Positions 13,977-61,796 of a stretch of DNA of 64,000 bases are shown piece after piece (the first letter of the stretch is position 1; each line of letters opens with the position of its first letter). The notes beneath the pieces were generated by a model. That model made no database searches and had not been told where the DNA came from. It saw nothing but the letters and a program-made list of their open reading frames with translations. The DNA is from Acidiferrobacteraceae bacterium (GTDB taxonomy: Bacteria > Pseudomonadota > Gammaproteobacteria > Acidiferrobacterales > JAJDNE01): assembly GCA_037388825.1 (NCBI GenBank), contig JARRJV010000001.1:1024-65023 (forward strand), in the 5' to 3' direction. Made by a program: the position numbers and the translations under genes.

Positions 13977-15271
13977 GATGAGGATTCTCCCGATTCTGCG
14001 GTCTTGGTATCGGAGGGCAGGTGCGCGGCGATGGTTTCGGCCATGCCGAAGATCTTGAAGTTCAGGTTATAGGCGTCAACGGCGTCCTCCATGACGATGC
14101 GGCAATTGGAACAGGAGGTCACCAGTTTGTCGACGCCGCCAACTGCGTCCAGCTGTGCCTTCTTGCGGCTGAACACCTTGATGCGCAACGCGTCCGCCCG
14201 TTCGTTGGCGCTGACCCCGCCACCGCCGCCGCAGCACCAGTTCCACACGCCGGGGTCGGGCATGTCCACGTAGTTGCTCGCCACCATCTTCAACAGGCGC
14301 CGCGGTTGTTCGAGCACGCCTCCCCGTCGCACCAGCTGGCAGGGGTCGTGGAAAGTAACGCGTTCGTCTTCCATGCCCTCGGTGCGCAGCCGGCCCTCTT
14401 CGCGCAGCTGATCGAGGAGCTCGAGGATGTGTATGACCTTGAATTTGTACGGGCGGCCGATGAGGTTCGGCCCTGACCAGCGGATGGCCATGTAGGCATG
14501 CCCGCATTCCGGGCTGATGACGTACTTGACTCCCAGTTTCTCGGCCCCGTCGACGATGCGCTGCACCAGTTCCGCGGCGATATCCGGCGACCCGATCTGG
14601 ATGCCGCTATTGGTGGCCTCGACCGCGTCCGAACACAGGGTCCAGCTAACACCCGCCTGTTTGAAGATGCGGGCAAGGGAGCCGAGATACTCCGGGAAGT
14701 TCACCGTCTCCATGCCCGACATGATCGCCATGTAGTCGGCGCCCTGCTGGTCTACCGGGATCTTCAGGCCGGTGTCTTCCTCGGTGTGCCGGATCTGCGC
14801 CTGTACGGTCTTCCAGGTGGCGCCCATGGGGCTGCCGATCTCCACTGCGCGCACGGTCGCACCCTTGAGACCGGGCGGTGCGTGACCGGCGGCGACCATG
14901 CCTGCACGTTCCTTGCTGATCATGTAGGCGATGTCATTTCCCACCGGGCCTACCATGGGGCAGCGGGCACACAGGGTGCAGCTGTCGTAGACCAGCGGTT
15001 CCCACTCCTTGAGTTCTTCGTCAGTAATCGGCTTGCTCAGCCCCACCATCGCAGCCAGCTTGCCCCAGAACGTGAAGTTGCGTTTCCATACCCGGCGCAT
15101 TGGCTCGAGCTTGTGAATGGGCGTGTACTTGGGATCGCCGGTCTCGGTGTAGAACAGGCAGGCATCGGCGCACATGCCGCAGTGCACGCAGCTGTTGAAG
15201 AACGACGCCACGCGCGAGTCGATCTGTTCGACGAGGGCATTGACGCCGTTCTTGAGGGTTGTATCGCTCAT
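13973..15271 (-). CDS. isp2: Isp2: HdrD/DsrK-like Fe-S protein with CCG domains
   Basis: Start MSDTTLK at 15271 (ATGA overlap with the isp1 stop). CVHCGMCADAC cluster motif. CCG-type motifs (NWCCGGGGG, TSCSNC, DPCQLVRRGG). Located between the small and large hydrogenase subunit genes. Confidence 0.88.
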   Translation of the reverse strand: MSDTTLKNGVNALVEQIDSRVASFFNSCVHCGMCADACLFYTETGDPKYTPIHKLEPMRRVWKRNFTFWGKLAAMVGLSKPITDEELKEWEPLVYDSCTLCARCPMVGPVGNDIAYMISKERAGMVAAGHAPPGLKGATVRAVEIGSPMGATWKTVQAQIRHTEEDTGLKIPVDQQGADYMAIMSGMETVNFPEYLGSLARIFKQAGVSWTLCSDAVEATNSGIQIGSPDIAAELVQRIVDGAEKLGVKYVISPECGHAYMAIRWSGPNLIGRPYKFKVIHILELLDQLREEGRLRTEGMEDERVTFHDPCQLVRRGGVLEQPRRLLKMVASNYVDMPDPGVWNWCCGGGGGVSANERADALRIKVFSRKKAQLDAVGGVDKLVTSCSNCRIVMEDAVDAYNLNFKIFGMAETIAAHLPSDTKTAESGESSS

Positions 15272-15927
15272 GACGCCACTCCTTTGCGTCCCGCCATGGC
15301 GCCGTTGTACCAGCGGGAGAGGAAGATGGTGAAGCTGTGGGTCAATTTGGTGAACGGCAGCACGATCAGCAGCAGTTCGACCGTCAATATATGAACCGTT
15401 AGCATCTGCGTGTACGGCAGTACGGCCTCGTGCGCCACCATGTAGCCAGTGAGCAGTGGCAGGAAGGTGACGGCCCAGGCGAGGTAGTCTCCGCCATTGG
15501 AAAGGAAGCGGCGCACCGGGTGAACGAGGCGGTGGGCCAGGAGGGCGACCAGCGCGGCGATGCTTACAACCGCGACAAGATCGATCACGGATGCCGGCAA
15601 CCCCGGCCAGCGAATTCCCCACACGCCATGGAAAAGCTCGATGTGCGGGGCAAAGAACACCAGGCTGATGAAGAATCCAAGATGAAAGGTGTAGCCACCA
15701 AAAAACACCAGCGGTTCCCGTTGAATCATCCCCGGGGCCGGTAGCGAACGATGGAATACCGTACGCCAACCGGACCAGAAACCACCGCGCCGCGGTTCCG
15801 CCAGGTCGCGGGAGTGCCCCAGCAGCCACATCTCCAGGATACGAAGTATGACCCCGAGAAAGAAGATCGCGAGCGAGAACTGCATCGCCGGACCTCGTAC
15901 CCAGACCAACACATCATGGGCGGTCAT
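15268..15927 (-). CDS. isp1: Isp1: NarI/DsrM-like membrane b-type cytochrome
   Basis: Start MTAHDVL at 15927 with SD GGAGGG and an ATGA overlap with the hynS stop. About 5 TM helices with conserved His residues. The 5' extension of ORF 15268..16257 overlaps hynS and is not coding. Confidence 0.82.
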   Translation of the reverse strand: MTAHDVLVWVRGPAMQFSLAIFFLGVILRILEMWLLGHSRDLAEPRRGGFWSGWRTVFHRSLPAPGMIQREPLVFFGGYTFHLGFFISLVFFAPHIELFHGVWGIRWPGLPASVIDLVAVVSIAALVALLAHRLVHPVRRFLSNGGDYLAWAVTFLPLLTGYMVAHEAVLPYTQMLTVHILTVELLLIVLPFTKLTHSFTIFLSRWYNGAMAGRKGVAS

Positions 15928-17033
15928 GATTGTCCCTCCTTCCCCTTCTTTTTCAATTCCTCTGCCGTGACCACGTGGTGTTCCCGTTTCGCCGCGGCAC
16001 GTTTGCGGCGTCCGGCCGCACCCATGGCGGCACCACCGGCGGCACCGGCCACCGCCGCGGCACCGGCCCACATACCGACCGGCGCCGTGGTCTGGCTCAG
16101 CGCGCGATAGAAACCACCCCCATCCCAGAAGTTGGGTTCGGAGCAACCGAGACAGGGATGGCCCGACTCGATCGGAAAGCTGACGCCGCCATTCCACTTG
16201 GTGGTCGCGCAGGCATTGTGCGTGGTCGGGCCCTTGCACCCGAGCTCGAACAGGCACCAGCCGTTGCGTGCCCCATCGTCATCGAAGCTCTTGGCGAACT
16301 TTCCCTGGTCGTAGAACGGACGCCGGTAGCAACGGTCGTGGATGGACTCGCCATAGAAGGCCGCCGGTCGCCCAAGTCTGTCCAGGGCCGGGATCTCGCC
16401 AAAGGTCAGGTAGTGCGCCAGAACTCCGGTGATGACCACCGGGATAGGAGGGCAGCCCGAGACATTGATGATCGGTTTGTCCTTGATGAGATCGCTCACC
16501 GGAACGGCGCCGGTGGGATTCGGGTTGGCGTAAGGGATGCCGCCGAAGGAGGCACAGGTACCGACGGCCACAACCGCAGCCGCGCCGGCGGCGACCTCTT
16601 TCAGCGTGTCCACGTTGGTGCGACCGGCACTGGTGGAATAGACGCCATTGTCCTTGGTCGGGATGGAGCCGTCGACGATGAGCAGATACTTGCCATAGAA
16701 TTGCTTCATCGCCGTTTCCCGCGCCGCCTCCGCGGCCGTGCCCGATGCCGCCTGAAGGGTGTCCTGGTAGTCCAGCGAAATGGAATTGAAGATCAGGTTT
16801 TCCAGTGTCGGCGCGTGGGAGCGTGTGAGGGACTCGAGACAACCCGTGCATTCCTGGAACGACAGGTAGATCACTGAGGGGCGTGGTGCCTTCTCCAGTG
16901 CCCTTGCCACCCGTGGGATCATGGTCGGTGGCAACGCCATGGCCGAGGTCGTGATCGCACACAGCTTGAGGAATGTACGGCGACTGATACCGCGCTGCCG
17001 CAGCTGGTCTCCTAGGGTCGTCTGCTTCTTCAT
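15924..17033 (-). CDS. hynS: [NiFe]-hydrogenase small subunit with Tat signal
   Basis: Twin-arginine signal GISRRTFLKLCA. FQECTGCLES and further Cys clusters. C-terminal hydrophobic anchor. The SD GGAG favours the ATG at 17033 (alternatives 17036 and 17051). Confidence 0.95.
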   Translation of the reverse strand: MKKQTTLGDQLRQRGISRRTFLKLCAITTSAMALPPTMIPRVARALEKAPRPSVIYLSFQECTGCLESLTRSHAPTLENLIFNSISLDYQDTLQAASGTAAEAARETAMKQFYGKYLLIVDGSIPTKDNGVYSTSAGRTNVDTLKEVAAGAAAVVAVGTCASFGGIPYANPNPTGAVPVSDLIKDKPIINVSGCPPIPVVITGVLAHYLTFGEIPALDRLGRPAAFYGESIHDRCYRRPFYDQGKFAKSFDDDGARNGWCLFELGCKGPTTHNACATTKWNGGVSFPIESGHPCLGCSEPNFWDGGGFYRALSQTTAPVGMWAGAAAVAGAAGGAAMGAAGRRKRAAAKREHHVVTAEELKKKGKEGQS

Positions 17034-17068
17034 CATCACTCCTCGTGGCAAGCGCCGGGTCGGTCGTG

Positions 17069-17500
17069 CTAGTGCCTGAGGGCATTGCGCAGGCGCGTGC
17101 GCAGGACATCCAGGCCATCCCGCATATCCTCATCCTGTGACAACAGGAGTTCGGGGATGCGCGTCACCTCGATAAATTCGGCCGCAATCTCATCGTCGTC
17201 GTTGTAGTGGGTGACCCACCACACCCCGGGAACGGCCGTTTCCGAAACCACCGATGGCCCGTTGCCGCCATCGAACTCTGCCGATACCTCGCCATTGCCG
17301 AGGGCGAGTTCCAGGGCATCGTAGTCGCCGGGAAGCATGGGCAGGCTGCGGATGTCGATCGCGCCTGTTTCGCCAGTCACCAGCAAGGTATCCAGCATGC
17401 CCTCGATCTCGTGCAGGATGGCGCGCACGTTTTCGCGCAGAACACTGGCGTCATCGTCGGGATCGACCGTGGTGACCGAAATGTCGTCAAGAGAGCTCAC
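17069..17500 (-). CDS. Hydrogenase expression/formation protein, single HupH/HyaF-like domain
   Basis: 143 aa. The pattern LELALGNGEVS...ETAVPGVWWV...EFIEVTRIPELL matches my memory of the HupH/HyaF C-terminal domain. The GTG start overlaps the protease stop (GTGA). Confidence 0.6.
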   Translation of the reverse strand: MSSLDDISVTTVDPDDDASVLRENVRAILHEIEGMLDTLLVTGETGAIDIRSLPMLPGDYDALELALGNGEVSAEFDGGNGPSVVSETAVPGVWWVTHYNDDDEIAAEFIEVTRIPELLLSQDEDMRDGLDVLRTRLRNALRH

Positions 17501-18030
17501 GGGTTCGCTCCTGCGGCAACGGGCTCGGGAACGTCGGCCTGGCCATGGTGCCAGCGGCGTGCCAGCGCGATGACCTGTCGGCAGACCTCGGGAATCGCGG
17601 CCCCTACCGACGGTGTCGGCGAATCCGCCCAGTCTATGCTCTCGGGTTCCACGCCAATCAGCGCCCGCCGTCGCGGCAAGTGACCCGCCAGGGTGGCGAC
17701 CGCCAGGAGATCCAGCAGGCTGACCTCGTGCACGCTCGAACGCTTTCCGTTGCCAAGAAAGTTATCCATGGCCGCCCCTTCGAAAACACGAACGGTGCCC
17801 GGGCTTGCGTTGAAGCGGCTGGCGTCGATGACGATGAGATGGGAGTGATCTTCGATAGCGCCCGCGAGGGTGAAACTGAGGGTACCGCCGTCGAGCAACT
17901 CGATACGGTCCAGCAGATCGGGGGCGTCTTTTGCGAGCGTGTTGCGAAGGTGCGCGAGTGCGTGGACACCGACGCCTTCGTCAGCGAGGAGGGTATTGCC
18001 CAGGCCAAGCACGAGAGTCTTGCTGCGCAC
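17497..18030 (-). CDS. [NiFe]-hydrogenase maturation endopeptidase (HupD/HyaD/HynD type)
   Basis: TLVLGLGNTLLADEGVGVHA...LLDGGT...LIVIDA motifs. GTG start preceded by AGGAGG. Confidence 0.9.
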   Translation of the reverse strand: MRSKTLVLGLGNTLLADEGVGVHALAHLRNTLAKDAPDLLDRIELLDGGTLSFTLAGAIEDHSHLIVIDASRFNASPGTVRVFEGAAMDNFLGNGKRSSVHEVSLLDLLAVATLAGHLPRRRALIGVEPESIDWADSPTPSVGAAIPEVCRQVIALARRWHHGQADVPEPVAAGANP

Positions 18031-18105
18031 TTCTCAGCTCCTCCTTTCACAGTCCCGACCAGTGTAGCGCCTTTCCTGTGAACTGCTGGCGCACGGACTG
18101 TAAAT

Positions 18106-18134
18106 ATTCTGTTATCGGCTGGATTATTTGTCAG
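18106..18134 (-). promoter_or_regulatory. Candidate sigma70-type promoter for the protease-hupH-hyn operon (-35 CTGACA, 17 bp, -10 CAGAAT)
   Basis: Hexamers read on the minus strand, ~70 nt upstream of the GTG at 18030. Pattern match only. Confidence 0.25.
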
Positions 18135-18183
18135 CGCTGCTTCCGGTCAGGCGGACAGCTTACGCGCCTGAACGATCATACTA

Positions 18184-18197
18184 TTGATATATATCAA
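18184..18197. promoter_or_regulatory. Perfect FNR/ANR-type box TTGATATATATCAA
   Basis: Exact match to the TTGAT-N4-ATCAA consensus. It sits in the 256-bp divergent region between the hyn operon (GTG at 18030, minus) and hypC (ATG at 18287, plus). Weak -10-like hexamers lie at the class II distance on both sides (TAAGCT on minus, GATTCT on plus). Confidence 0.6.
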
Positions 18198-18286
18198 AAC
18201 CCTGTATCCATGGACGGCCGATTCTACGTCTGACGTGTGCAAGGCGTTGGCGATATACTGATTGTCCATTTCCCGGGATTGCGCAT

Positions 18287-18535
18287 ATGTGTCTGGGCAT
18301 ACCCATGCAAATCGTCTCTATCGACGGGTACAACGCCCGCTGCGAGGCCAAGGGCGTGGCACGCGATGTCAGCCTGTTCATGATGCAGGACGAACCCCTG
18401 AATCCAGGGGACTTCGTTATGGTCCACGTCGGCTATGCGATCCAGAAAATGAGCGAACAGGAGGCCCATTCCGCCTGGGAGCTGTACGATCAAATGTTGG
18501 CGGCCGAAGGCGCGACGGAGCCGGGCGATGCATGA
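18287..18535 (+). CDS. hypC: Hydrogenase maturation chaperone HypC/HupF
   Basis: MCLGIPMQIV N-terminus (essential Cys2), 82 aa. Confidence 0.93.
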   Translation: MCLGIPMQIVSIDGYNARCEAKGVARDVSLFMMQDEPLNPGDFVMVHVGYAIQKMSEQEAHSAWELYDQMLAAEGATEPGDA

Positions 18536-18893
18536 GCTTTCGGTATGCCAGGGCATGCTGCGCCAGGTCGGCGCCATCGCCGCGGACCATGAAGCCCGTG
18601 CCGTGACCGGCATCACCGTACGCATCGGCCCCTTGTCCGGTGTGGAACCGGAGTTGCTGGCGCAGGCCTTTCCCATCGCCAGCGCGGGCACGGTCGCGGA
18701 TGGGGCCGACTTGATTATCGAGACCTTGCCGGTGCGCGTGCATTGCGAAACCTGTGGCGAGGACAGCGACGCTGCTATCAACCGCCTGTTGTGCGGATCC
18801 TGCGGCGACTACCACACCCGTTTGATCAGCGGCGACGAACTCCTGCTGGCAAGTGTAGAGATGGATACCGAGAGAGAACCGGCACGAGCCTGA
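18528..18893 (+). CDS. hypA: Hydrogenase nickel insertion protein HypA
   Basis: MHELS N-terminus and two CxxC pairs (CETCG, CGSCG). 8-nt overlap with hypC. Confidence 0.93.
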   Translation: MHELSVCQGMLRQVGAIAADHEARAVTGITVRIGPLSGVEPELLAQAFPIASAGTVADGADLIIETLPVRVHCETCGEDSDAAINRLLCGSCGDYHTRLISGDELLLASVEMDTEREPARA

Positions 18894-18928
18894 GCCCGCT
18901 ATCGTGCCGGGGAGAAGGAGGAAGTGAT

Positions 18929-19747
18929 ATGTGCGATACCTGCGGTTGCAACATCACGAAAGGCAATCAACATCTGCTGACCGGCGATGGCAAGTTGTCC
19001 CGCGTGCACGAAGGCACTACGGCAGTGAGCGTACTGCGTGGTCTGCTGTCCGAGAACGATCACCAGGCGGCCCACAACCGTGAGCACTTCGATCGCCGCG
19101 GTATCCTTGCGATCAATCTCATGTCCTCGCCCGGTTCAGGCAAGACCGCCTTGCTGGAAGCAAGCATCGATGCCCTGGGGGATCGCTACGGTATCGCGGT
19201 GATCGAGGGCGACCTCGAGACGGAGAATGATGCCGAACGTATCCGTGCCCGTGGTGTACGGGCGGTGCAGATCGCGACCGGCACCGCCTGCCACCTGGAC
19301 GCGCACATGGTCCACGATGCCGTGCACGATCTCGACCTGGACGGGATCGACCTGGTGTTCATCGAGAATGTCGGCAACCTCGTGTGTCCGGCGAGCTTTG
19401 ACCTGGGCCAGCACCGTAACGTAACCCTGCTATCCGTGACCGAGGGGGATGACAAACCGGCGAAGTATCCGGTGATGTTTCGCGCCGCCGATGCGGTGGT
19501 TCTGAGCAAGATCGATCTGCTGCCGGTGATGGACGATTTCGAACCGAGCCGTGCCGAACGTTGCCTGCGGGACCTTGCCAGCCGGGCACCGGTGCTACGG
19601 GTGGCGGCGCGCAAGCAGGCCGACCTCGGTTCGTGGCTGACGTGGCTGGAGAACGAGATTGCCAGCCATCGAAAGCGTCTGGAGGCGGGCCAAACCATAC
19701 GCCCGGCGATCCAGCCCGACGGCATGCGCCTGCACAGCGGTGGCTAG
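18929..19747 (+). CDS. hypB: Hydrogenase nickel-incorporation GTPase HypB
   Basis: MCDTCGC metal-binding N-terminus, P-loop SSPGSGKT, ENVGNLVCP. SD GGAGAAGGAGGAAG upstream of the ATG at 18929. Confidence 0.93.
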   Translation: MCDTCGCNITKGNQHLLTGDGKLSRVHEGTTAVSVLRGLLSENDHQAAHNREHFDRRGILAINLMSSPGSGKTALLEASIDALGDRYGIAVIEGDLETENDAERIRARGVRAVQIATGTACHLDAHMVHDAVHDLDLDGIDLVFIENVGNLVCPASFDLGQHRNVTLLSVTEGDDKPAKYPVMFRAADAVVLSKIDLLPVMDDFEPSRAERCLRDLASRAPVLRVAARKQADLGSWLTWLENEIASHRKRLEAGQTIRPAIQPDGMRLHSGG

Positions 19748-19791
19748 GGCATACCTTAATATATATTGATCACTCACGGGGAGCGTGGCCC

Positions 19792-20907
19792 ATGGCCCTG
19801 ATCGCCCAGGACTGGCTCAAACGGATACGCGATCTCGATCTTCCGCAGCGGGTGAAGATCATGAACGTGTGTGGCGGCCACGAGCGCTCCATCACCATGG
19901 CCGGCCTGCGCGCGGCCTTGCCGGAGAATATCGAGCTTATACCCGGTCCCGGTTGCCCGGTCTGCATCTGCCCGGAAGAGGATGTATTCGAGGCCATCCA
20001 GCTGGCGCTCCATGAAGACATCATCCTCGTGGCATTCGGCGACATGTTGCGGGTGCCGGTCAACGCGCCGAAGAAGGACGCCCGTTCCCTGGAGCAGGCC
20101 AGGGCGCGCGGGGCCGACATCCGTCCCATCGCTTCCCCCACGGAGGCCGTGCGCATCGCGCACGAACAACCGGATCGGGCGGTCGTGTTTTTCGCTGCCG
20201 GTTTCGAGACCACGACCGCGCCGGTGGCGGCCATGCTTGCCGAGGGCGTGCCGGAAAACCTGTTCCTGTTGTTGTCCGGAAGATTGACCTGGCCTGCGGT
20301 GGCCATGCTGCTGGAGACGGGCGAGGCCGGTTTCGATGCCCTCATCGCTCCGGGCCATGTATCCACGGTTATGGGTCCGGAGGAATGGCAGTTCGTGGTC
20401 GACACGCATCGTATGCCGGCGGCCATCGCCGGATTTACACCGGTGAGTCTGCTCGCCGCCATGTATTCGGTGTTGCGCCAGTTGCGGGAGGGTAAGCCCT
20501 TCCTCGACAACTGCTATCCGGAGGTCGTGCGCGCAGGTGGCAATTCTGCAGCGCGACGGCAGATGAAGGAAGTGCTCGATGTAGGCGACGCGAACTGGCG
20601 TGGGATCGGAACCATTCGCGCCTCCGGCTTCGCGCTCAAACCGGCCTTCGCGGCCCTTGATGCGCGGGTGCGGTTCCCGTCGCATGCGGCCGAGGCGCGC
20701 AAGCGCGCCGGCGAGATGCCACCGGGCTGCGACTGCGCACGCGTGGTTCTGGGACGCATCTATCCAAATGAATGCCGGCTCTATGGCCGCGCCTGCACCC
20801 CGCGCAATCCCATCGGTCCCTGCATGGTATCCGATGAGGGGGCATGCCGGATCTGGTGGGCGGGCGGTGTACGCGAGCCGCGCGAGGCGGCCTCGGCCGG
20901 CGCCTGA
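19792..20907 (+). CDS. hypD: Hydrogenase maturation protein HypD
   Basis: CGGHE, GPGCPVC and C-terminal Cys cluster motifs. ATG at 19792 after GGGGAG. Confidence 0.93.
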   Translation: MALIAQDWLKRIRDLDLPQRVKIMNVCGGHERSITMAGLRAALPENIELIPGPGCPVCICPEEDVFEAIQLALHEDIILVAFGDMLRVPVNAPKKDARSLEQARARGADIRPIASPTEAVRIAHEQPDRAVVFFAAGFETTTAPVAAMLAEGVPENLFLLLSGRLTWPAVAMLLETGEAGFDALIAPGHVSTVMGPEEWQFVVDTHRMPAAIAGFTPVSLLAAMYSVLRQLREGKPFLDNCYPEVVRAGGNSAARRQMKEVLDVGDANWRGIGTIRASGFALKPAFAALDARVRFPSHAAEARKRAGEMPPGCDCARVVLGRIYPNECRLYGRACTPRNPIGPCMVSDEGACRIWWAGGVREPREAASAGA

Positions 20908-20940
20908 GCGCGCACCCGCAGGCGCGGGTAGAATCAGAAC

Positions 20941-22161
20941 ATGGAAATCCACAACTTTCTCCTGCAGATCGCGGCGATCCTTCTGACCGCGCGCGTATTC
21001 GCTGAACTGGCGGCGTGGCTCGGAGCGCCGCCAATTGTGGGCGAGCTGTGCGCCGGTATCGTGCTTGGTCCGTCGCTGTTGGGCTGGATCGTGCCCAATA
21101 ACGTGATCAGCCTTCTGGCGGAAATCGGAATCATCCTGCTGTTGTTCGAGGTCGGCCTGGAAACCGATATCGCTCGCCTGGTCCGCTCCGGAGGCAAGGC
21201 GGCGGCGGTCGCGACCACCGGTTTCATCCTTCCCTTCGTGTTCGGGTATGTCCTCAGCCGCCATGTCTTTGCGCTGCCCGTGTTGCCAGCGCTGTTTGTC
21301 GGCGGCACGCTGACCGCCACCAGCATCGGCATCACCGTGCGTATCCTGTCGGACATCAACCGCCACCGCAGCAACGAGGGCCAGATCGTGGTCGGCGCCG
21401 CGGTGCTCGATGACCTGCTCGGCATCTTTCTGCTGGCGGTGCTGTACCAGTTGTCCACTGCCGGGTCGGTAGACGGCATGTCCGTAGCGCGAATCGTTCT
21501 GTTCGTGGGCCTGTTCTTTCTCGCCGCGCCCGTTGTCGCCAAGGTGGTGGCGCCGCTCATCAAGCATTTCCACAATCGCAGCGATATCCCGGGCATGATC
21601 CCGATCCTGCTGGTGTCGCTGGTACTGGTGTTCGCCTCCACTGCCAGATTCGTCGGCGCCCCCGAGCTGCTCGGCGGTTTCGTCGCCGGGGTGGCGCTGT
21701 CGCGCCGTTTCTTCCTGCCCTTCGGCGCGGCCCTGCACATGGATCCCGAGTTCACCCAACATGTGCACAATGAGATGAAACCCATCATCCGCCTGTTCAC
21801 ACCGATCTTTTTCGTCATGGTCGGCCTGTCCCTGGACCTGCGTGCGGTGGACTGGAACTCCTGGTTTATCTGGGCGTTCTCGCTGGCCCTGACCGGGGTT
21901 GCCATCCTGGGCAAGCTTGGCGGTCCGTGGGTGATTCGCGAATCGGTTCCCGCGCGTGTCGCCATCGGCATGGCCATGGTGCCTCGCGGCGAGGTCGGGT
22001 TGGTCTTCGCCGAACTGGGTCGGGCGGGAAATGTATTCAGCCCCGAGGTCTATGCGGGCATGATCCTGGTAATCCTGTACACGACCCTGGCCTCGCCATT
22101 CTGGATCAAGAGTTTCTACCGGGTGTTCGGCCATCGCCTGCCCAACAACGACCCCGGGTAA
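20941..22161 (+). CDS. Cation:proton antiporter (CPA2/Kef-like membrane domain, no KTN domain)
   Basis: 406 aa, about 11-13 TM. N-terminus FLLQIAAILLTARVFAELAAWLGAPPIVGELCAGIVLGPS is typical of Na+/H+ exchanger-family proteins. The stop overlaps the hypF start (TAATG). Confidence 0.8.
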   Translation: MEIHNFLLQIAAILLTARVFAELAAWLGAPPIVGELCAGIVLGPSLLGWIVPNNVISLLAEIGIILLLFEVGLETDIARLVRSGGKAAAVATTGFILPFVFGYVLSRHVFALPVLPALFVGGTLTATSIGITVRILSDINRHRSNEGQIVVGAAVLDDLLGIFLLAVLYQLSTAGSVDGMSVARIVLFVGLFFLAAPVVAKVVAPLIKHFHNRSDIPGMIPILLVSLVLVFASTARFVGAPELLGGFVAGVALSRRFFLPFGAALHMDPEFTQHVHNEMKPIIRLFTPIFFVMVGLSLDLRAVDWNSWFIWAFSLALTGVAILGKLGGPWVIRESVPARVAIGMAMVPRGEVGLVFAELGRAGNVFSPEVYAGMILVILYTTLASPFWIKSFYRVFGHRLPNNDPG

Positions 22162-24449
22162 TGTCGACTCCCGATCCGAAAAAGGAATCGTCGCCGCGCG
22201 ATGGGATCTGCGCCATGCGCCTTCGTATTGGAGGGCGGGTACAGGGTGTTGGTTTCCGCCCCTTCGTCTATCGCACTGCCCGGGCGTGCGATGTGACAGG
22301 TTGGGTGCGAAACGAAGGCGGTGAGGTGGAGGTGCAGGCCGAAGGCACGGAGGCGGATCTCGCGCGCTTCGCCGAAACACTGATCCATTCGGCACCGCCA
22401 TTGGCGCGACCGGAGATGCTGACCCGGCAAGCGGTCACACCGGAAGCCTGTCGCACTTTCTCCATCGTCGAAAGCGGTAGTCGCGCCGATGCGCAGATCC
22501 ACCTGCCGCCGGATTGTTTCCTGTGCGAGGACTGCCGGCAGGAGCTGGAAGACCCGTCGGACCGGCGTTACCGCTATCCCTTCATCAACTGCACCCAGTG
22601 TGGGCCGCGCTATACCTTGATCACAAAGCTCCCGTACGACCGCGTTCATACCACAATGGCCGGTTTCGAAATGTGCGCGGACTGCCGGCGGGAATATGAA
22701 GACCCGCTCAACCGGCGCTTTCATGCCGAACCGGTCGCCTGTCCCGTCTGCGGTCCGAAGCTGCAGTTTCACGCAGGAGGAGGTGGTGTGATTGACGATG
22801 CGCCGGCGGCCCTGGGCGCGGCGGAAGAGGCCTTGCGCCGCGGGCTCGTCGTTGCGGTCAAGGGTGTAGGTGGATATCACCTCCTGTGCGATGCCTCCAA
22901 CAACGAGGCGGTTCGGCGGCTGCGCGTCAACAAGCACAGGCCACACAAGCCCCTGGCAGTCATGTTTCCCATGACCGGTGAGGATGGTCTTGAGGCGCTG
23001 CGGGCGGAAGTGAAGCTCACATCGATCCATGGGCAACTGCTGCGCGATCCCACTCGATCCATCGTACTGGTGCCGCTGCGCGAAGACAGTTCCCTGTCTG
23101 CCGCCCTGGCGCCGGGCCTGGACGAAATCGGTGTCTTTCTTCCCTACAGTCCGCTGCATCATCTCCTGCTTGCCGATCTGGGTCGGCCTTTGGTCGCCAC
23201 TTCCGGCAATGTCAGCGGTGAGCCTGTCATCACCGACAGGATCGAGGCGGAGCAACGCCTCGACAATGTGGTCGACGCCTTTTTGCATCACGACCGGCCG
23301 ATTGAGCGCCCGGCGGACGATCCGGTGTTCCGCGTTGTCGCCGGCCACGGCCGGCCCATGCGCCACGGACGCGGCAGTGCGCCAGTGGAGCTGAGCTTGC
23401 CGTTCCGCCTGGAGAAGCCCCTGCTTGCAGTCGGCGGCCATATGAAGAACAGCGTTGCCCTCGCGTGGGGCGATCGCATCGTGCTGTCGCCCCACATCGG
23501 CGATCTCGATGCACCGCGCAGCCTGGCCGTTTTCGAGCAGGTGGTCGAAGACCTGCAATCCCTTTATGGCGTGCGCGCAAGTGCCCTGGTGTGCGATGCC
23601 CATCCCGGCTACGCGAGTACGCGCTGGGCGCAGCGCCAGGGCCTGCCGGTCCAGTCCGTCTGGCATCACCAGGCCCATGCCTCCGCCATTGCTGGCGAGT
23701 TTGGTGAAGAAGAGGGCTGGCTGGTGTTCGCGTGGGACGGGGTCGGACTGGGTCCCGACGGTACCCTTTGGGGTGGTGATGCCCTCCGGGGCAGGCCCGG
23801 GGAGTGGCAACACGCGGCCCGGCTGCGCCCGTTTCGTTTGCCCGGCGGCGACAAGGCCGCGCGTGAACCCTGGCGCAGCGCCCTGGCGCTTTGTTGGGAG
23901 GCTGGTGGTGAGTGGTCCGGCGCGCCGGCGCAGACGGAGTTGCTGCGCAGCGCGTGGGAGCAAGGCGCGAACACCGCGATCACGAGCGCCGCCGGACGAC
24001 TGTTCGATGCCGCCGCCGCCCTGACCGGCCTGTGCAGCAACGCAAGTTACGAAGGCCAGGGGCCTATGCAACTGGAAGCAGCATGTGAAGATATCGGTGG
24101 TGCAATCGAGTTGCCGCTGGAAAGGAACGACGACGGTGTCTGGCAATCCGACTGGGCGCCGCTGGTGACCATGTTGCGGGATGACACTTCCAGCGTCGCC
24201 GAGCGTGCCGGTCGTTTCCATGCCAGTCTTGCCCGTGCCCTGTGCGACCAGGCCAGGGCGATACGAAACGAGCATGGCGACTTCGCCGTCGGGCTGTCCG
24301 GCGGCGTGTTCCAGAATCGTATCCTTGCCGAGGCCGCCATGGCCATGCTCCAGCAGGCAGGTTTCCGCGCCTATCTGCCGCAGCGCGTGCCGTGCAACGA
24401 CGGCGGCCTGTGTTATGGTCAGATCATCGAGGCGGGAAGAAAATCGTGA
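22161..24449 (+). CDS. hypF: Carbamoyltransferase HypF
   Basis: Acylphosphatase domain (GRVQGVGFRPFV), two zinc-finger pairs (CEDCRQE...CTQCGPRYT; CADCRRE...CPVCGP), YrdC and Kae1-like regions. 762 aa from the ATG at 22161. Confidence 0.95.
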   Translation: MSTPDPKKESSPRDGICAMRLRIGGRVQGVGFRPFVYRTARACDVTGWVRNEGGEVEVQAEGTEADLARFAETLIHSAPPLARPEMLTRQAVTPEACRTFSIVESGSRADAQIHLPPDCFLCEDCRQELEDPSDRRYRYPFINCTQCGPRYTLITKLPYDRVHTTMAGFEMCADCRREYEDPLNRRFHAEPVACPVCGPKLQFHAGGGGVIDDAPAALGAAEEALRRGLVVAVKGVGGYHLLCDASNNEAVRRLRVNKHRPHKPLAVMFPMTGEDGLEALRAEVKLTSIHGQLLRDPTRSIVLVPLREDSSLSAALAPGLDEIGVFLPYSPLHHLLLADLGRPLVATSGNVSGEPVITDRIEAEQRLDNVVDAFLHHDRPIERPADDPVFRVVAGHGRPMRHGRGSAPVELSLPFRLEKPLLAVGGHMKNSVALAWGDRIVLSPHIGDLDAPRSLAVFEQVVEDLQSLYGVRASALVCDAHPGYASTRWAQRQGLPVQSVWHHQAHASAIAGEFGEEEGWLVFAWDGVGLGPDGTLWGGDALRGRPGEWQHAARLRPFRLPGGDKAAREPWRSALALCWEAGGEWSGAPAQTELLRSAWEQGANTAITSAAGRLFDAAAALTGLCSNASYEGQGPMQLEAACEDIGGAIELPLERNDDGVWQSDWAPLVTMLRDDTSSVAERAGRFHASLARALCDQARAIRNEHGDFAVGLSGGVFQNRILAEAAMAMLQQAGFRAYLPQRVPCNDGGLCYGQIIEAGRKS

Positions 24450-58076: not shown

Positions 58077-59840
58077 TCATGTTGAGGATCCGCCTTCCGC
58101 GGGTGTGTGCTTCTCCAAGGTCACCGCCCGTTCGCAGGCTTCCCCCAGGGTCAGGCAGCACTCGAGCATGCCCGATGTCTGGCGCAGTCCCGCCCGGTAC
58201 AGCTTGCGATAGATCCGTGCATTGAGATTGGCGATGATCACTGCCACCCGGGCGTGGTTGAGCCGTTTGACCAGGGAATCCAGGGCGACGATGCCTGTCA
58301 TATCCACCATGGATACGTCCGCCATGTCGAATATGACCAGCCTGACCTCAGGATTGAGGCGCTGAATGACGCTGGCCGCCTTCTCCGCGGCACCGAAAAA
58401 CAGCGGGCCATTGATGTCATAGATTGCGACCGAGGAAGGAAGTTCCTCGGTATGAGCGTGTTCATCACGCCGCACCAGGGCGACATCGGTCAGACTCATC
58501 ATGCGGCGGACGAAGAGAATGGAGGCGAGCACCACTCCGGCGGCGACAGCGATGACCATATCGAAAACGACTGTAAGAAAAATACAGGTAAGCAACACCG
58601 CAACATCGGACCGTGGCGCTACCCTTACAACATTGACCACGTGTCTTGCCTCGCTCATGTTCCACGCAACAACCATCAGCAGGGCTGCCAGCGCGGCCAT
58701 CGGCAGATAGCCCAGCAAGTCGGCAAACACCACGACGGTCAGCAGCACCACCCCGGCGTGAATCACGGCCGAGATCGGGCCGTGGGCGCCGCTGCGGATC
58801 GAGGTCGCGGTCCGCGCGATGGCGGCAGTCGCGGTGATCCCTCCGAAGAATGGTGCAATCACATTGCCCAGGCCCTGGCCGACCAGTTCGGCATTGGGGT
58901 CGTGTCGTGTTCCGGTAATGCCGTCGGCGACTACGGCGCACAGCAGGGATTCGATGGCTCCCAGCATGGCGACGGTGAATGCCGACGGCAGCAGCTCACG
59001 GATGAGGCCTATGGAGATGCCGATGGGGTTGCCATGCGCATCGGGCAAGTGCCAGGGCCAGTCCGGTATGGGAGGAAACGGAGGTATCCCATTGCCGTTT
59101 GCACCGTCCACCATGTAGTGAAAACGGGACGAGATTGTTGCCACCTCGAATCCGGGCCAGATCCGGTGGGCGAGGTAGGCTGCGAGAGACCCGATCACAA
59201 GTGCCACCAGGTGCCCCGGGATGCGGGTCTTGAGTCGTGGCCACAACACCAGTACCGCAAGGGTGATGGAACCGATCGCAATGTCAGGCCCATGCGCGGA
59301 GGGGACGGCCCGAATGAGTGCGCCCACCTTGTCCAGGTAGTGCTGGGGGTGCCCCGCGAGGGTCAGGCCCAGAAAATCCTTGAGCTGAAGGGTGGCGATG
59401 ACGATCCCGATACCGGCGGTGAATCCCGCGGTCACGGGATAGGGAATGAATTGAATCAGCCGCCCCATCCGCGTGGCGCCCATGGCGACCAGGATCAAGC
59501 CGGCCAAGACCGTAGTGAGGAGCAATCCACCGAGGCCGTGGCTTTGGGTAATGGGCAGGAGGATGACCACGAACGCGGCGGTCGGCCCGGAAATGGAAAA
59601 CCGCGAGCCGCCCGTAAGCGCAATAACGACTCCCGCGATGATCGAGGTATAGAGGCCATATTGGGGCGGGACCCCGCTGGCAATAGCAAGGGCCATGGCC
59701 AGGGGAACGGCGACCACACCCACGGTAATCCCCGCAAGCAGGTCGCCTCGCATGTTGGCGCGGCTGTAACCACCCGCGAATAAGTCGATGATTGCCGTAG
59801 CGATCGGCCAGCGGGCTTGGGAATTATTGGAGCTGTTCAC
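58077..59840 (-). CDS. SulP-family anion permease with C-terminal STAS domain
   Basis: N-terminal RGDLLAGITVGVVAVPLAMA and a STAS-like C-terminus (IYDINGPLFFGAA...). 587 aa. Confidence 0.9.
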   Translation of the reverse strand: MNSSNNSQARWPIATAIIDLFAGGYSRANMRGDLLAGITVGVVAVPLAMALAIASGVPPQYGLYTSIIAGVVIALTGGSRFSISGPTAAFVVILLPITQSHGLGGLLLTTVLAGLILVAMGATRMGRLIQFIPYPVTAGFTAGIGIVIATLQLKDFLGLTLAGHPQHYLDKVGALIRAVPSAHGPDIAIGSITLAVLVLWPRLKTRIPGHLVALVIGSLAAYLAHRIWPGFEVATISSRFHYMVDGANGNGIPPFPPIPDWPWHLPDAHGNPIGISIGLIRELLPSAFTVAMLGAIESLLCAVVADGITGTRHDPNAELVGQGLGNVIAPFFGGITATAAIARTATSIRSGAHGPISAVIHAGVVLLTVVVFADLLGYLPMAALAALLMVVAWNMSEARHVVNVVRVAPRSDVAVLLTCIFLTVVFDMVIAVAAGVVLASILFVRRMMSLTDVALVRRDEHAHTEELPSSVAIYDINGPLFFGAAEKAASVIQRLNPEVRLVIFDMADVSMVDMTGIVALDSLVKRLNHARVAVIIANLNARIYRKLYRAGLRQTSGMLECCLTLGEACERAVTLEKHTPAEGGSST

Positions 59841-59890
59841 GGTCGAATTCCTGCAAAGGCAAGGTCGCCAAACCGGGATGACAGGTAATG

Positions 59891-59906
59891 TGGCACCGAC
59901 TGGCGG
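59891..59906 (+). promoter_or_regulatory. Motif TGGCACcgaCTGGCGG (copy 2 of the motif at 6217-6232)
   Basis: Read directly in the divergent region between the SulP gene and the hydroxylase gene. Confidence 0.25.
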
Positions 59907-60003
59907 TCATCCATTCCCGGTGTGGAACGGATGTTCTACCATACTAAACGTGTTAGGATTTTTCACCAAGGTATCTGGTGGAAATCAAGGATGGGTTGCA
60001 GCA

Positions 60004-60606
60004 ATGCCGCAGAAATCAATCCGCTACTTGTATGATCGGATGGTTGACGGAATCGTCCGTATGTCCCAGACGAGGACGAACTACTGGGCAGAACTGGTAG
60101 TCGACGCCTCCATTGTTGTCGCTTTCGTTTCCTATGCGATCCTCAGCCATGCAGTGGGTCTGTTCGCAAGCCTGTTGATCGTCGTGGGCGGTCTGTTGAT
60201 ATTTTCATTCATTGAGTATTTCTTTCACCGCTGGCTCTTCCATGGGCCGGTGAGGATCCTGGAACGGGGACATAGCGCCCATCATGCAGAGCCCCTTGGC
60301 TACGATTCGCTACCGTTTTTTCTTCCCGCCCTGGTAATGATCCTGTGGGTTGCCGTGTTCGGCCTGGTTCTGCCCCTAGCCTACAATTTGCTGCTCACTG
60401 CCGCTGTCCTTTCTGGTTACATAATCTATGTGCTTGCACACTTTTCCATTCATCATTGGCGGCCGAAAAACCGGTACGTGCGGAAATGGGCGGCCTACCA
60501 TCATATTCATCACCACCATCCGGAATATAATTTCGGTGTGACTACTCCGCTGTGGGATATTGTGCTTGGTACCCGATACCGCTCAAAATACAAGCGCGCC
60601 TTCTAG
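60004..60606 (+). CDS. Fatty acid hydroxylase/sterol desaturase-family membrane protein
   Basis: His boxes HRWLFH, HSAHH, HHIHHHH. 4 TM. ATG at 60004. Confidence 0.8.
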   Translation: MPQKSIRYLYDRMVDGIVRMSQTRTNYWAELVVDASIVVAFVSYAILSHAVGLFASLLIVVGGLLIFSFIEYFFHRWLFHGPVRILERGHSAHHAEPLGYDSLPFFLPALVMILWVAVFGLVLPLAYNLLLTAAVLSGYIIYVLAHFSIHHWRPKNRYVRKWAAYHHIHHHHPEYNFGVTTPLWDIVLGTRYRSKYKRAF

Positions 60607-60684
60607 CAATTGAATCGAATCCCGGCGAGGCTGCTCCATTACCGGGATAGCTGCACCTGACTTTTTCATTCGCAAGGGATTGCC

Positions 60685-61011
60685 ATGAAAGTCTATATCG
60701 TTGCCGGTTCCATCATTTCAGTCGCAGTTCTACTCGTCTCCAGCCATATACAGGCCTGGCGCCTCGGTCGCATGGAAGTGCGGGCGAAGTACGATCATCT
60801 TGTGATCAAGCACCGCGAGCGGGAATCGGAACTGCTCGCCTCACTCCAGGAAGCGCGGGAAGCGCGCAAGGTGGTGTATCGTGAACATATTCGGACAATC
60901 AGGGAAGTCAGTGCACCCTGTCTTGATCATCCTGTGCCTGAGTCTGTTGCCGGTCTCCTGCGGAAACCCGGCGGTAGTTCGACCGGATCCACAGCTGATC
61001 CGGGACTGTAG
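60685..61011 (+). CDS. N-terminally anchored coiled-coil protein, i-spanin (Rz/LysB)-like architecture
   Basis: TM helix VYIVAGSIISVAVLLVSS, charged helical middle (EVRAKYDHLVIKHRERESELLASLQEAREARK), C-terminal ...APCLDHPVPESVAGLL. SD-like AAGGGA. Confidence 0.5.
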   Translation: MKVYIVAGSIISVAVLLVSSHIQAWRLGRMEVRAKYDHLVIKHRERESELLASLQEAREARKVVYREHIRTIREVSAPCLDHPVPESVAGLLRKPGGSSTGSTADPGL

Positions 61012-61144
61012 CTTTCCCGTTCTCGAGGCGGGCCAGACCACCTTTCGGGATGTGGTGGAGCTCGCCGAAAGGCGGGGTGAGGCTTTGACTGAATGCAGCG
61101 GAAGAATGCGCACCATTCGCAAGAGTTTTGGCGCCGATCAGTAG
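60881..61144 (+). CDS. Small putative lipoprotein in the +1 frame overlapping the previous gene, o-spanin (Rz1/LysC)-like architecture
   Basis: GTG at 60881 preceded by AAGGTGG (6-nt spacing). Signal-like MNIFGQSGKSVHPVLIILCLSLLPVS-C with an imperfect lipobox (Pro at -3). Pro-containing mature N-terminus. Overlaps 60685..61011 by 131 nt. Confidence 0.4.
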   Translation: MNIFGQSGKSVHPVLIILCLSLLPVSCGNPAVVRPDPQLIRDCSFPVLEAGQTTFRDVVELAERRGEALTECSGRMRTIRKSFGADQ

Positions 61145-61370: not shown

Positions 61371-61796
61371 TCAGGAGTCGTCGGAATCCCAGTCGGCGCC
61401 ATCGTCCCCGTCGTCCACGTCATCCGGGATTTCCGAATCATCCGTATCGGGATCGATATCACTGAGCATGGTTTCGGCACTGGTCTTGCGGGGGCGTACG
61501 CGCTCAACTGCGGCCGAGGATTGGGACCCCCGTGGCGAGAAGCCGGAGAGGGCGGCGACGAATGCGGCCTGTAGTTCATCAACGATCACTTCCTCGCCGG
61601 GTTCAAACTCGCGAAGTTTCGGTTCCACCAGATCGCGCCGGTACTCGAGGATGGCGTCGCGCTGAAGGTTGAAGAGATAGACCGTGGCTGTGTTGCCCGT
61701 ATCCAGGTTCGGATCCATGGCGACCGGCGAGCTCTTGGCTCCCGCATCGAGGAAGCCATACCACGCCGAACCTTTTTTCGCTGCCGATCCGCCCAT
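61371..61796 (-). CDS. Hypothetical protein with strongly acidic Asp-rich C-terminal tail
   Basis: Protein-like N-terminal ~90 aa, then DIDPDTDDSEIPDDVDDGDDGADWDSDDS. No motif recognised. Confidence 0.45.
   Translation of the reverse strand: MGGSAAKKGSAWYGFLDAGAKSSPVAMDPNLDTGNTATVYLFNLQRDAILEYRRDLVEPKLREFEPGEEVIVDELQAAFVAALSGFSPRGSQSSAAVERVRPRKTSAETMLSDIDPDTDDSEIPDDVDDGDDGADWDSDDS

Follow-up and report, generated by a model that had tools for sequence, protein, structure and literature searches.

The window analyzed here, namely the whole stretch of 64,000 nucleotides (nt) taken from a contig of an Acidiferrobacteraceae bacterium, carries two overlapping open reading frames, ORF1 and ORF2, which very likely encode a genuine two-component spanin kept by the host, with ORF1 as the inner-membrane subunit (i-spanin) and ORF2 as the outer-membrane lipoprotein (o-spanin). 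Our preferred reading, to which we assign a probability of roughly 75%, is that the pair is of phage origin, was captured by the ancestor of the clade in which it is now found, and has since been inherited vertically under purifying selection without linked lysis genes. The more specific proposal that it serves as a trans-acting lysis helper stands at about even odds. The first-pass annotation of this DNA had described two ORFs in different frames sharing 131 nt and had likened them to phage spanin genes in the overlapped layout. The ORF listing returns the same two frames and the same overlap, and the spanin reading has held: ORF2 passes the Pfam threshold for LysC, and the family of ORF1 is i-spanin-like and adjoins endolysin genes in phages. 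The features of the locus are as follows.

60685–61011, plus strand: ORF1, i-spanin-like gene; ATG start, 108 amino acids (aa), from the ORF listing
60881–61144, plus strand: ORF2, o-spanin gene for a LysC-family lipoprotein precursor; GTG start, 87 aa, +1 frame, from the ORF listing
60881–61011, plus strand: dual-coding overlap of the ORF1 3′ end and the ORF2 5′ end; 131 nt
60868–60874, plus strand: Shine-Dalgarno (SD) sequence AAGGTGG for ORF2, 6 nt 5′ of the GTG, read in the sequence
60674–60679, plus strand: SD-like AAGGGA for ORF1, 5 nt 5′ of the ATG, read in the sequence
60691–60747, plus strand: predicted transmembrane (TM) anchor of ORF1, residues ~3–21; hydrophobic run in the translation, helical in the AlphaFold2 (AF2) model
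60947–60961, plus strand: lipobox region L-P-V-S-C of ORF2, with Cys27 at 60959–60961; rule check against the consensus
60004–60606, plus strand: FA_hydroxylase (PF04116, Pfam assignment), ~200 aa, the upstream neighbour; context, not demonstrably part of the system

ORF2 scores 34.4 bits (E = 2.1e-8) against the Pfam family PF23793 (Rz1-like lysis system protein LysC), for which the curated gathering score is 27 bits, and the alignment spans profile positions 5–64 of 69. LysC of phage P2 reaches 64.9 bits with the same profile, the orthologs of ORF2 at loci L001 and L011 reach 43.4 and 37.9 bits, respectively, and phage o-spanins also lie above the threshold. Furthermore, ORF2 matches phrog_456, annotated as 'Rz-like spanin', with an E-value of 2.6e-9. 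The features that the first-pass annotation had listed for ORF2 are all present: its own SD, a signal-like segment ending in LLPVS-C, and a Pro-containing stretch with two further Cys. The product opens with MNIFGQSGKSVHPVLIILCLSLLPVS-C, and the mature part, 61 aa counted from Cys27, contains four Pro in its first 20 residues. Residues C43 and C72 are invariant in the alignment, and a single-sequence structure model predicts a C-terminal helix, which at a predicted local distance difference test (pLDDT) score of 48.6 is of low confidence and serves as a hint only. According to the sorting rule established for Escherichia coli, Asp at position +2 of a lipoprotein is the inner-membrane retention signal. 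The +2 residue is Gly in the window and G, V or A in the clade, never Asp, and ORF2 thus carries no such signal.

Other searches with ORF2 returned no homologs. No match was scored in a database of 5.8 billion proteins, because gene callers skip the overlapped gene, and the alignment of ORF2 found no relative among GTDB genomes, indicating that the clade has no representative genome there. A sequence search of the Protein Data Bank also gave no relative.

ORF1 begins with the hydrophobic segment VYIVAGSIISVAVLLVSS, has a charged, helical middle and closes with a Cys/Pro segment, in agreement with the first-pass description. Residues 77–92 read APCLDHPVPESVAGLL, and ...APCLDHPVPESVAGLLRK... lies near the end; C79 is the only Cys, and the C terminus carries the motif CLDxPVPESVAGLLR. 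In the AF2 model, built on six sequences, ORF1 forms one helix over residues 2–80, with block-mean pLDDT above 90 for residues 11–70, followed by a short helix at 86–92 and a disordered tail at 96–108. An N-terminal TM segment followed by a mainly helical periplasmic domain is the organization of an i-spanin, and it is what the hydrophobic residues 3–21 and the AF2 helix predict for ORF1. By analogy with Rz of phage lambda, ORF1 would be a type II inner-membrane protein. Searches of Pfam and NCBIfam with ORF1 gave no match, and neither did tblastn against 50,697 phage records, so that ORF1 was placed in a family through a profile search only. The profile, comprising ORF1 and five close homologs, retrieved 75 proteins at E ≤ 1e-3 from 1.84 billion cluster representatives. 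All 75 are 79–150 aa long, the typical family member having about 95–115 aa, and the family shares the motif RE-VVYRDRIK-x8-CLDxPxPxxxxxxLR. C79 is conserved in at least 90% of 58 family members, 14 of which match phrog_214 (best 4.6e-8) and seven phrog_5151 (best 2.7e-12); matches of family members to further PHROG Rz-like spanin families include phrog_1026, 8821, 1152 and 9841. Membership of ORF1 itself in these families would follow by transitive homology.

The phage relatives tie the two frames together. The best phage matches of ORF2 by tblastn are in Stenotrophomonas phages, and the annotated o-spanin of one of them, c9-N (OR209256), is 38% identical to ORF2 (pairwise E = 2e-13). This o-spanin gene overlaps an unannotated 94-aa i-spanin ORF that directly follows the endolysin gene 'lysozyme R'. 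The 94-aa product has an N-terminal TM segment and ends in ...VVPDDVADLLRKH, which aligns with ...PVPESVAGLLRK of ORF1, the alignment running through a common end, ...VP(E/D)xVAxLLRK. Across one viral contig and 26 metagenome loci, each locus with a complete i-spanin gene contains a lipoprotein ORF that overlaps this gene in a different frame. This ORF is LysC-like in nearly all cases, and most pairs share 89–197 nt, with the longest frames reaching 269 nt; at L030, a locus with terminase and portal genes, the second ORF is embedded in the i-spanin gene rather than overlapped. The nearest relatives outside the clade are found in phage genomes, after M15, Amidase_3, DUF5675 or lysozyme-type endolysin genes. 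Thus, a 61-aa ORF separates the i-spanin gene from Peptidase_M15_4 in L123 (SSB and AAA_24 nearby) and from Amidase_3 in L124 (DNA polymerase A and thymidylate synthase nearby), and an 84-aa ORF separates it from DUF5675 in L125 (Phage_stabilise and YqaJ nearby). In the viral contig L010 and at L027 a DUF5675/phrog_1501 protein is encoded upstream of the spanin pair.

A periplasmic Cys in at least one subunit is found in 507 of 528 two-component spanin systems (PMC6139136). The window pair has C79 in ORF1 and both C43 and C72 in mature ORF2. Genes for o-spanins are embedded in, overlapped with or adjoining those for i-spanins, and here the overlap is 131 nt with ORF2 in the +1 frame. Collectively, the LysC match of ORF2, the overlapped loci of the family and the alignment with c9-N indicate that ORF1 and ORF2 are homologous to bona fide phage i-spanin/o-spanin pairs.

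Two observations on the phage loci deserve separate mention. The i-spanin ORF of c9-N (L008:2763–3047, corresponding to OR209256 35697–35981) is missing from the deposited annotation, which lists the o-spanin, and its start falls within the last part of the endolysin gene. Second, in three separate phage contigs the DUF5675/phrog_1501 protein occupies the endolysin position 5′ of the spanin pair (L010:4360–4773, L027:7289–7792 and L125:7346–7768), with a small ORF between the two in L010 and L125. Its gene position makes DUF5675/phrog_1501 a candidate endolysin family, the function being given as unknown in both libraries.

The two genes are also interlocked at the start of ORF2. Its SD and GTG sit within the ORF1 codons AAG-GTG-GTG-TAT-CGT-GAA (K-V-V-Y-R-E): the SD falls in the K-V-V codons of the family motif (K/E)VVYR(D/E), and the GTG in TAT-CGT-GAA. 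The arrangement TAy-CGT-GAx at the o-spanin start recurs in 16 of the 22 family loci, so that the most conserved motif of the i-spanin doubles as the initiation region of the o-spanin. Over window positions 60865–60885, the pattern common to these 16 loci reads rAG-GTn-nTn-TAy-CGT-GAx, and family loci with CGA or AGA for the motif Arg have their o-spanin start elsewhere. The SD-like AAGGGA 5′ of ORF1 is kept in L004 and L005 and not in L001 or L011, as judged from the intergenic alignment. A scan for promoters and terminators around the pair gave no signal above shuffle expectation.

Both frames have been maintained over considerable divergence. The five database homologs of ORF1, at 69–98% identity, are all exactly 108 aa long, and the clade loci recovered comprise L001, L004, L005, L006, L007 and, later, L011/L117. 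Both frames are open and free of indels in six related lineages (63–98% identity). ORF2 is open from the same GTG in the recovered loci and closes at the same stop, except in L011/L117, where the stop comes one codon earlier; the L007 contig ends inside ORF2. No homolog with one continuous ORF was found: all loci covering both ORFs keep the same register, with no indel and no fusion. The codon-position signature of variable alignment columns changes frame at the overlap. Upstream of it, counted by ORF1 codon position, 43 of 65 positions vary at position 3, against 20 and 16 at the other two; downstream, counted by ORF2 codon position, the values are 34 of 45 against 15 and 11. Inside the overlap 26% of columns are variable, compared to 40% and 45% in the single-coding parts. 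The ratio of nonsynonymous to synonymous substitution rates (dN/dS, Nei-Gojobori) is 0.06–0.31 in ORF1 codons 1–65 and ~0.09–0.11 in ORF2 codons 45–87. Synonymous sites in ORF1 codons 1–65 are saturated between the window and L001 or L011 (dS 1.9–4.6). In the ORF1 frame, apparent dS is 0.09–0.54 in the overlap versus 0.19 to saturation upstream. The synonymous-site suppression expected of two conserved frames is thus present.

Compared with the host genes around it, the pair does not evolve unusually fast. Between the window and L001, protein identity is 68.5% for ORF1 and 65% for ORF2, against 58.6% for FA_hydroxylase, 66% for acetate kinase and 56.7% for the acidic protein encoded downstream. 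It follows that the pair has diverged together with the host backbone, under a constraint no weaker than that on the backbone.

The genomic context is that of an orphan locus. Family scans covered 23 large ORFs of the 64 kb and, in L001, 10 kb on each side of the pair, and among these no phage, holin or endolysin gene was found. Consistent with the flanks described by the first-pass annotation, FA_hydroxylase lies immediately upstream, and an acidic 141-aa protein on the minus strand, acetate kinase (ackA) and the start of a phosphoketolase gene (xfp) lie downstream. The 20 kb upstream encode ABC-2 permeases, an HD/GAF protein, DUF599, an M48 peptidase, DUF898, an MFS protein, an HlyD-type protein, an MBL-fold protein, a LOG-family protein and a SulP transporter; genes for a NiFe hydrogenase, HypF and Bat-type proteins are located farther upstream. 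Searches of the window by tblastn with lysozyme R of c9-N, a DUF5675 protein and holin Y, endolysin K and LysA of P2 gave nothing better than E = 0.1, and the window contains no tRNA gene. The neighbours are cellular in the window, L001, L004, L005, L011 and L117 alike, and no prophage remnant appeared in the scanned window ORFs or in the neighbourhoods of the relatives. Wherever the contig of a clade member extends upstream, FA_hydroxylase directly precedes the pair (the upstream gene of L007 was not searched), whereas the next genes differ: SulP in the window, a hydrogenase-4/complex-I-like operon in L001, a PAS sensor in L004 and a diphthamide-synthase-like gene in L011/L117. Homologs of this FA_hydroxylase at ~53% identity, in Rhodanobacter and one metagenome-assembled genome (MAG), lack the pair and are followed by a convergent YgjP-like gene. 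The pair was thus presumably acquired once, downstream of FA_hydroxylase, in the clade ancestor, and then retained.

A second chromosomal pair of the same family was noticed at L034:7953–8397 and L025:1588–2035, the context of L034 being chromosomal and non-phage. The neighbours on the 32.5-kb L034 contig include malate synthase, citrate synthase, GNAT, polysaccharide deacetylase, LigT, a 5′-nucleotidase-like protein, SoxA and an M48 peptidase; at L025, a CsrA-like ORF, judged by sequence without a family search, precedes the pair. The i-spanins of the two loci are 55% and the o-spanins 63% identical, with both frames intact and a 4-codon indel. In a rough neighbour-joining tree of mature o-spanins, for which the sequences are short and support is weak, L034 and L025 group apart from the window clade. 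This suggests a second, independent chromosomal capture.

Several observations weigh against the capture and retention of a working spanin. First, the PVSC lipobox of ORF2 departs from the consensus [LVI][ASTVI][GAS]C, taken from the spanin survey of Kongari et al. 2018 (PMC6139136), in having Pro at −3, and K9 is the only positive charge of the signal. The deviation is common to the window sub-clade (the window, L005, L006 and L007), which has LLPVSC and no Lys or Arg in the first seven residues, whereas L004, L001 and L011 have a canonical L(L/S)LVSC that passes the consensus and an Arg or Lys early in the signal. Comparison of the two protein frames indicates that the Leu-to-Pro change would be synonymous in ORF1 (GCT to GCC). 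Lipidation of the window copy is accordingly uncertain; it should be noted that deviant lipoboxes have been reported among o-spanins and that the deviant AWAC of a u-spanin was shown to work (PMC6139136). Second, the direct PHROG matches of ORF1 are weak (phrog_214, E = 1e-3; phrog_5151, E = 0.009), so that profile searches against spanin families confirm ORF2 outright (PF23793 and phrog_456) and reach ORF1, which has none in Pfam or NCBIfam, by way of matching family members. The 58-member profile aligned with P2 LysB by hhalign at a probability of only 9% (E = 0.0036, 43 columns), and ORF1 is not demonstrably a LysB homolog at the level of sequence. Third, the holin and endolysin neighbours of a lysis cassette, which the phage relatives have, are lacking here; with no hydrolase or holin linked to the pair, its trigger would be encoded elsewhere and is hypothetical, and the sequence inspected comes to 64 kb from this genome and 20 kb from one relative. 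The intergenic region 5′ of ORF1 also varies across the clade, and its alignment shows no conserved promoter. Finally, purifying selection establishes that the genes are functional, though not the nature of the function.

An unlikely alternative to a captured spanin is that the pair has been neo-functionalised into a permanent inner-to-outer-membrane tether or lipid-contact device, perhaps coupled to FA_hydroxylase. The constant presence of that gene directly upstream while the outer flanks differ, with no terminator-like site between it and ORF1, fits such a coupling, as do the missing lysis partner and the second chromosomal copy in another lineage. The clade o-spanin moreover has a 2-residue insertion and a C-terminal extension absent from phage relatives, and the conserved i-spanin tail is specific to the clade. 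However, the genes may be linked simply because a single clade has inherited their order. FA_hydroxylase homologs outside the clade lack the pair, the second orphan copy lacks an FA_hydroxylase neighbour, and the conservation of the tail is explicable by the constraint of the overlapping o-spanin frame.

It is quite improbable that the pair is a neutral relic, that is, all that is left of the lysis cassette of a decayed prophage and by chance not yet deleted or disrupted. Its phage origin and isolation from other lysis genes would be expected of a remnant, and to these can be added the degenerate lipobox of the window sub-clade and a slight dip in GC content, to 51–55% over 59800–60800 compared to 60–65% in the flanks. 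Yet synonymous sites are saturated between lineages in which both ORFs remain intact, equal in length and free of indels. Furthermore, both single-coding parts have a dN/dS of ~0.1, the codon periodicity changes frame at the overlap, conservation of the pair is no lower than that of the host genes beside it, and the synteny of the pair with FA_hydroxylase has outlasted the rearrangement of everything further upstream.

Still less probable, and entirely speculative, is an anti-phage decoy, whereby host subunits would pair with those of incoming related phages, poison their spanin complexes and thereby slow or prevent the release of progeny. Related phages whose spanins are homologous do occur in similar metagenomes, and the complex, by inference from lambda, requires heterotypic C-terminal pairing; against this, the pair has no PADLOC model match and no defence-island context.

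A single frameshifted gene or a chance overlap can be dismissed for practical purposes: GC-rich DNA does yield many spurious long ORFs, and many nested ones are listed in the window, but all relatives, phages included, have two ORFs in the same relative frames, never fused, ORF2 alone spans the LysC profile, ORF1 alone is full-length against the 75 family representatives, and each frame has its own codon-position signature. In particular, chance was ruled out by the LysC match of 34.4 bits together with purifying selection on both frames in relatives, and the possibility that the C-terminal helix of ORF2 is the displaced C-terminus of a longer, Rz-like i-spanin was rejected, the LysC profile covering the helix and the phage relatives showing two ORFs. 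The first-pass annotation had left three options open: a domesticated or relic module, a chance overlap and a frameshifted gene. Domestication is supported and a relic is unlikely, while the other two fall with the demonstration of two frames under selection.

Among characterized systems, P2 LysB/LysC is the closest in layout, being the prototype of the overlapped arrangement in which the o-spanin gene starts, in the +1 frame, within the 3′ portion of the i-spanin gene and extends beyond its end. LysC and ORF2 both clear the PF23793 threshold (64.9 and 34.4 bits), and no pairwise BLAST similarity is seen between them; LysB is 141 aa long against 108 aa for ORF1, with no demonstrable relation (hhalign, 9%). 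The P2 pair follows holin Y, endolysin K and LysA, whereas the window pair has no lysis neighbours. In sequence, the closest relatives are the spanins of c9-N and of the uncultured phages L010, L123, L124 and L125, whose i-spanins are of the same size class as ORF1 and carry the C-terminal VPxxVAxLLRK or CLDxPxP motif. All of them share the overlap layout, and the uncultured phages also have the GTG start in the YR(D/E) codons, a motif that the c9-N i-spanin lacks. All these phage copies are directly 3′ of an endolysin gene (lysozyme R, Peptidase_M15_4, Amidase_3 or DUF5675), and the window pair follows a host lipid hydroxylase instead. Lambda Rz/Rz1 likewise combines a type II inner-membrane protein with a small lipoprotein encoded in the +1 frame and has periplasmic Cys; it differs in its embedded layout and shows no detectable sequence similarity. 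ORF2 is longer than Rz1, with its 61-aa mature part and a C-terminal helix predicted by a low-confidence model.

Domesticated phage lysis proteins are known from type 10 secretion systems (T10SS), in which a holin and a peptidoglycan hydrolase, encoded beside the cargo genes, form the core and spanins are optional (PMC13284979). Serratia ChiWXYZ and the Yersinia entomophaga cassette are such systems and include a spanin pair (PMC13284979; PMC10847048). The window pair differs from them in consisting of spanins only, with no holin, hydrolase or cargo detected in the ORFs scanned. It has in common with Rz/Rz1 remnants of the DLP12 type that spanin genes are retained in a bacterial chromosome. 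Such cryptic-prophage copies, however, stay within recognisable defective prophages that have holin and endolysin genes. The DLP12 lysis module of E. coli has been linked to vesicle production (PMC7918800).

Some further observations concern the surroundings of the pair. The mechanical ORF for FA_hydroxylase (59788–60606) is 272 aa long, and the homologs are 199–200 aa, so that the true start is probably the ATG at 60004. The acidic 141-aa protein (window 61371–61796, minus strand) is conserved and has a strongly acidic C-terminal tail; it has no Pfam, NCBIfam or PADLOC match, and its synteny with the pair and ackA holds in the window, L001, L005 and L011/L117. Between the pair and its gene lies a variable spot, which holds two or three extra genes in L005 (1439–5376) and L004 (8320–11252). 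The products, of 273/292 aa and 785/682+ aa, belong to no Pfam or PADLOC family, and a weakly FecR-like 241-aa gene is also present. PADLOC defence models matched neither the pair nor its neighbours nor the genes inserted in L004 and L005. Farther away, window positions 12210–24449 encode a NiFe hydrogenase large subunit, a CCG/4Fe-4S protein and HypF. The best matches of the large subunit, at 81% identity, are to Gammaproteobacteria, 'Muproteobacteria' and Gallionella/Sulfuricella-type MAGs, which places the host in a lineage of uncultured Gammaproteobacteria; going by these taxa only, our guess is that the host is a hydrogen- or sulfur-oxidising organism. We take it to be diderm by analogy with the usual envelope of Gammaproteobacteria, in which spanins make sense.

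Under the preferred reading of a captured and retained spanin, the steps beyond the sequence can be modelled on the biology of lambda Rz/Rz1 and P2 LysB/LysC. One mRNA would serve for both proteins, with ORF2 translated from the internal GTG by means of its own SD, both of which are seen in the sequence. ORF1 would insert its N-terminal helix into the inner membrane and extend a helical stalk of ~60 residues into the periplasm, and ORF2 would be sorted to the outer membrane after its export and lipidation at Cys27. The two proteins may then pair by their C-terminal parts, with the conserved Cys, through disulfides, stabilising a complex that threads through the peptidoglycan. Such a complex would be inert as long as the wall is intact and would fuse or disrupt both membranes after local removal of peptidoglycan, in line with the periplasm-spanning and membrane fusion mechanism described for the lambda spanins (PMC6139136; PMC5295617). 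The triggering hydrolase could be encoded elsewhere, by a spanin-less prophage, a tailocin or gene transfer agent-type element, or an autolysin gene, and the host would keep the pair as a trans-acting module for outer-membrane disruption or fusion.

The proteins are further members of known families; what is new is their stand-alone, host-conserved context, in which the pair has been retained at a fixed place across genus- or family-level divergence. We found no description in the open-access literature of a spanin pair that stands alone at one fixed chromosomal site and is subject to strong purifying selection. To our knowledge, spanins have been studied as the last step of phage lysis, and their reuse by hosts, in T10SS, tailocins and cryptic prophages, is known only together with a holin and a wall hydrolase. 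If the captured pair is what it appears to be, either the host employs a membrane-fusion machine in trans, together with hydrolases whose genes lie at other sites, or spanins serve the cell in some way other than lysis. We tentatively suggest, as a possibility that we hold to be the less probable one, that spanin pairs have been captured repeatedly by Gram-negative hosts, apparently in at least two independent lineages (the FA_hydroxylase-linked clade and L034/L025), and kept as a membrane-bridging or fusion device independent of the holin-endolysin programme. Such a device might bring the inner and outer membranes into regulated contact, hemifuse them or form vesicles between them, maybe in conjunction with membrane-lipid modification. 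Given that overlapped o-spanins are missed by gene callers, modules of this kind would be invisible to standard annotation.

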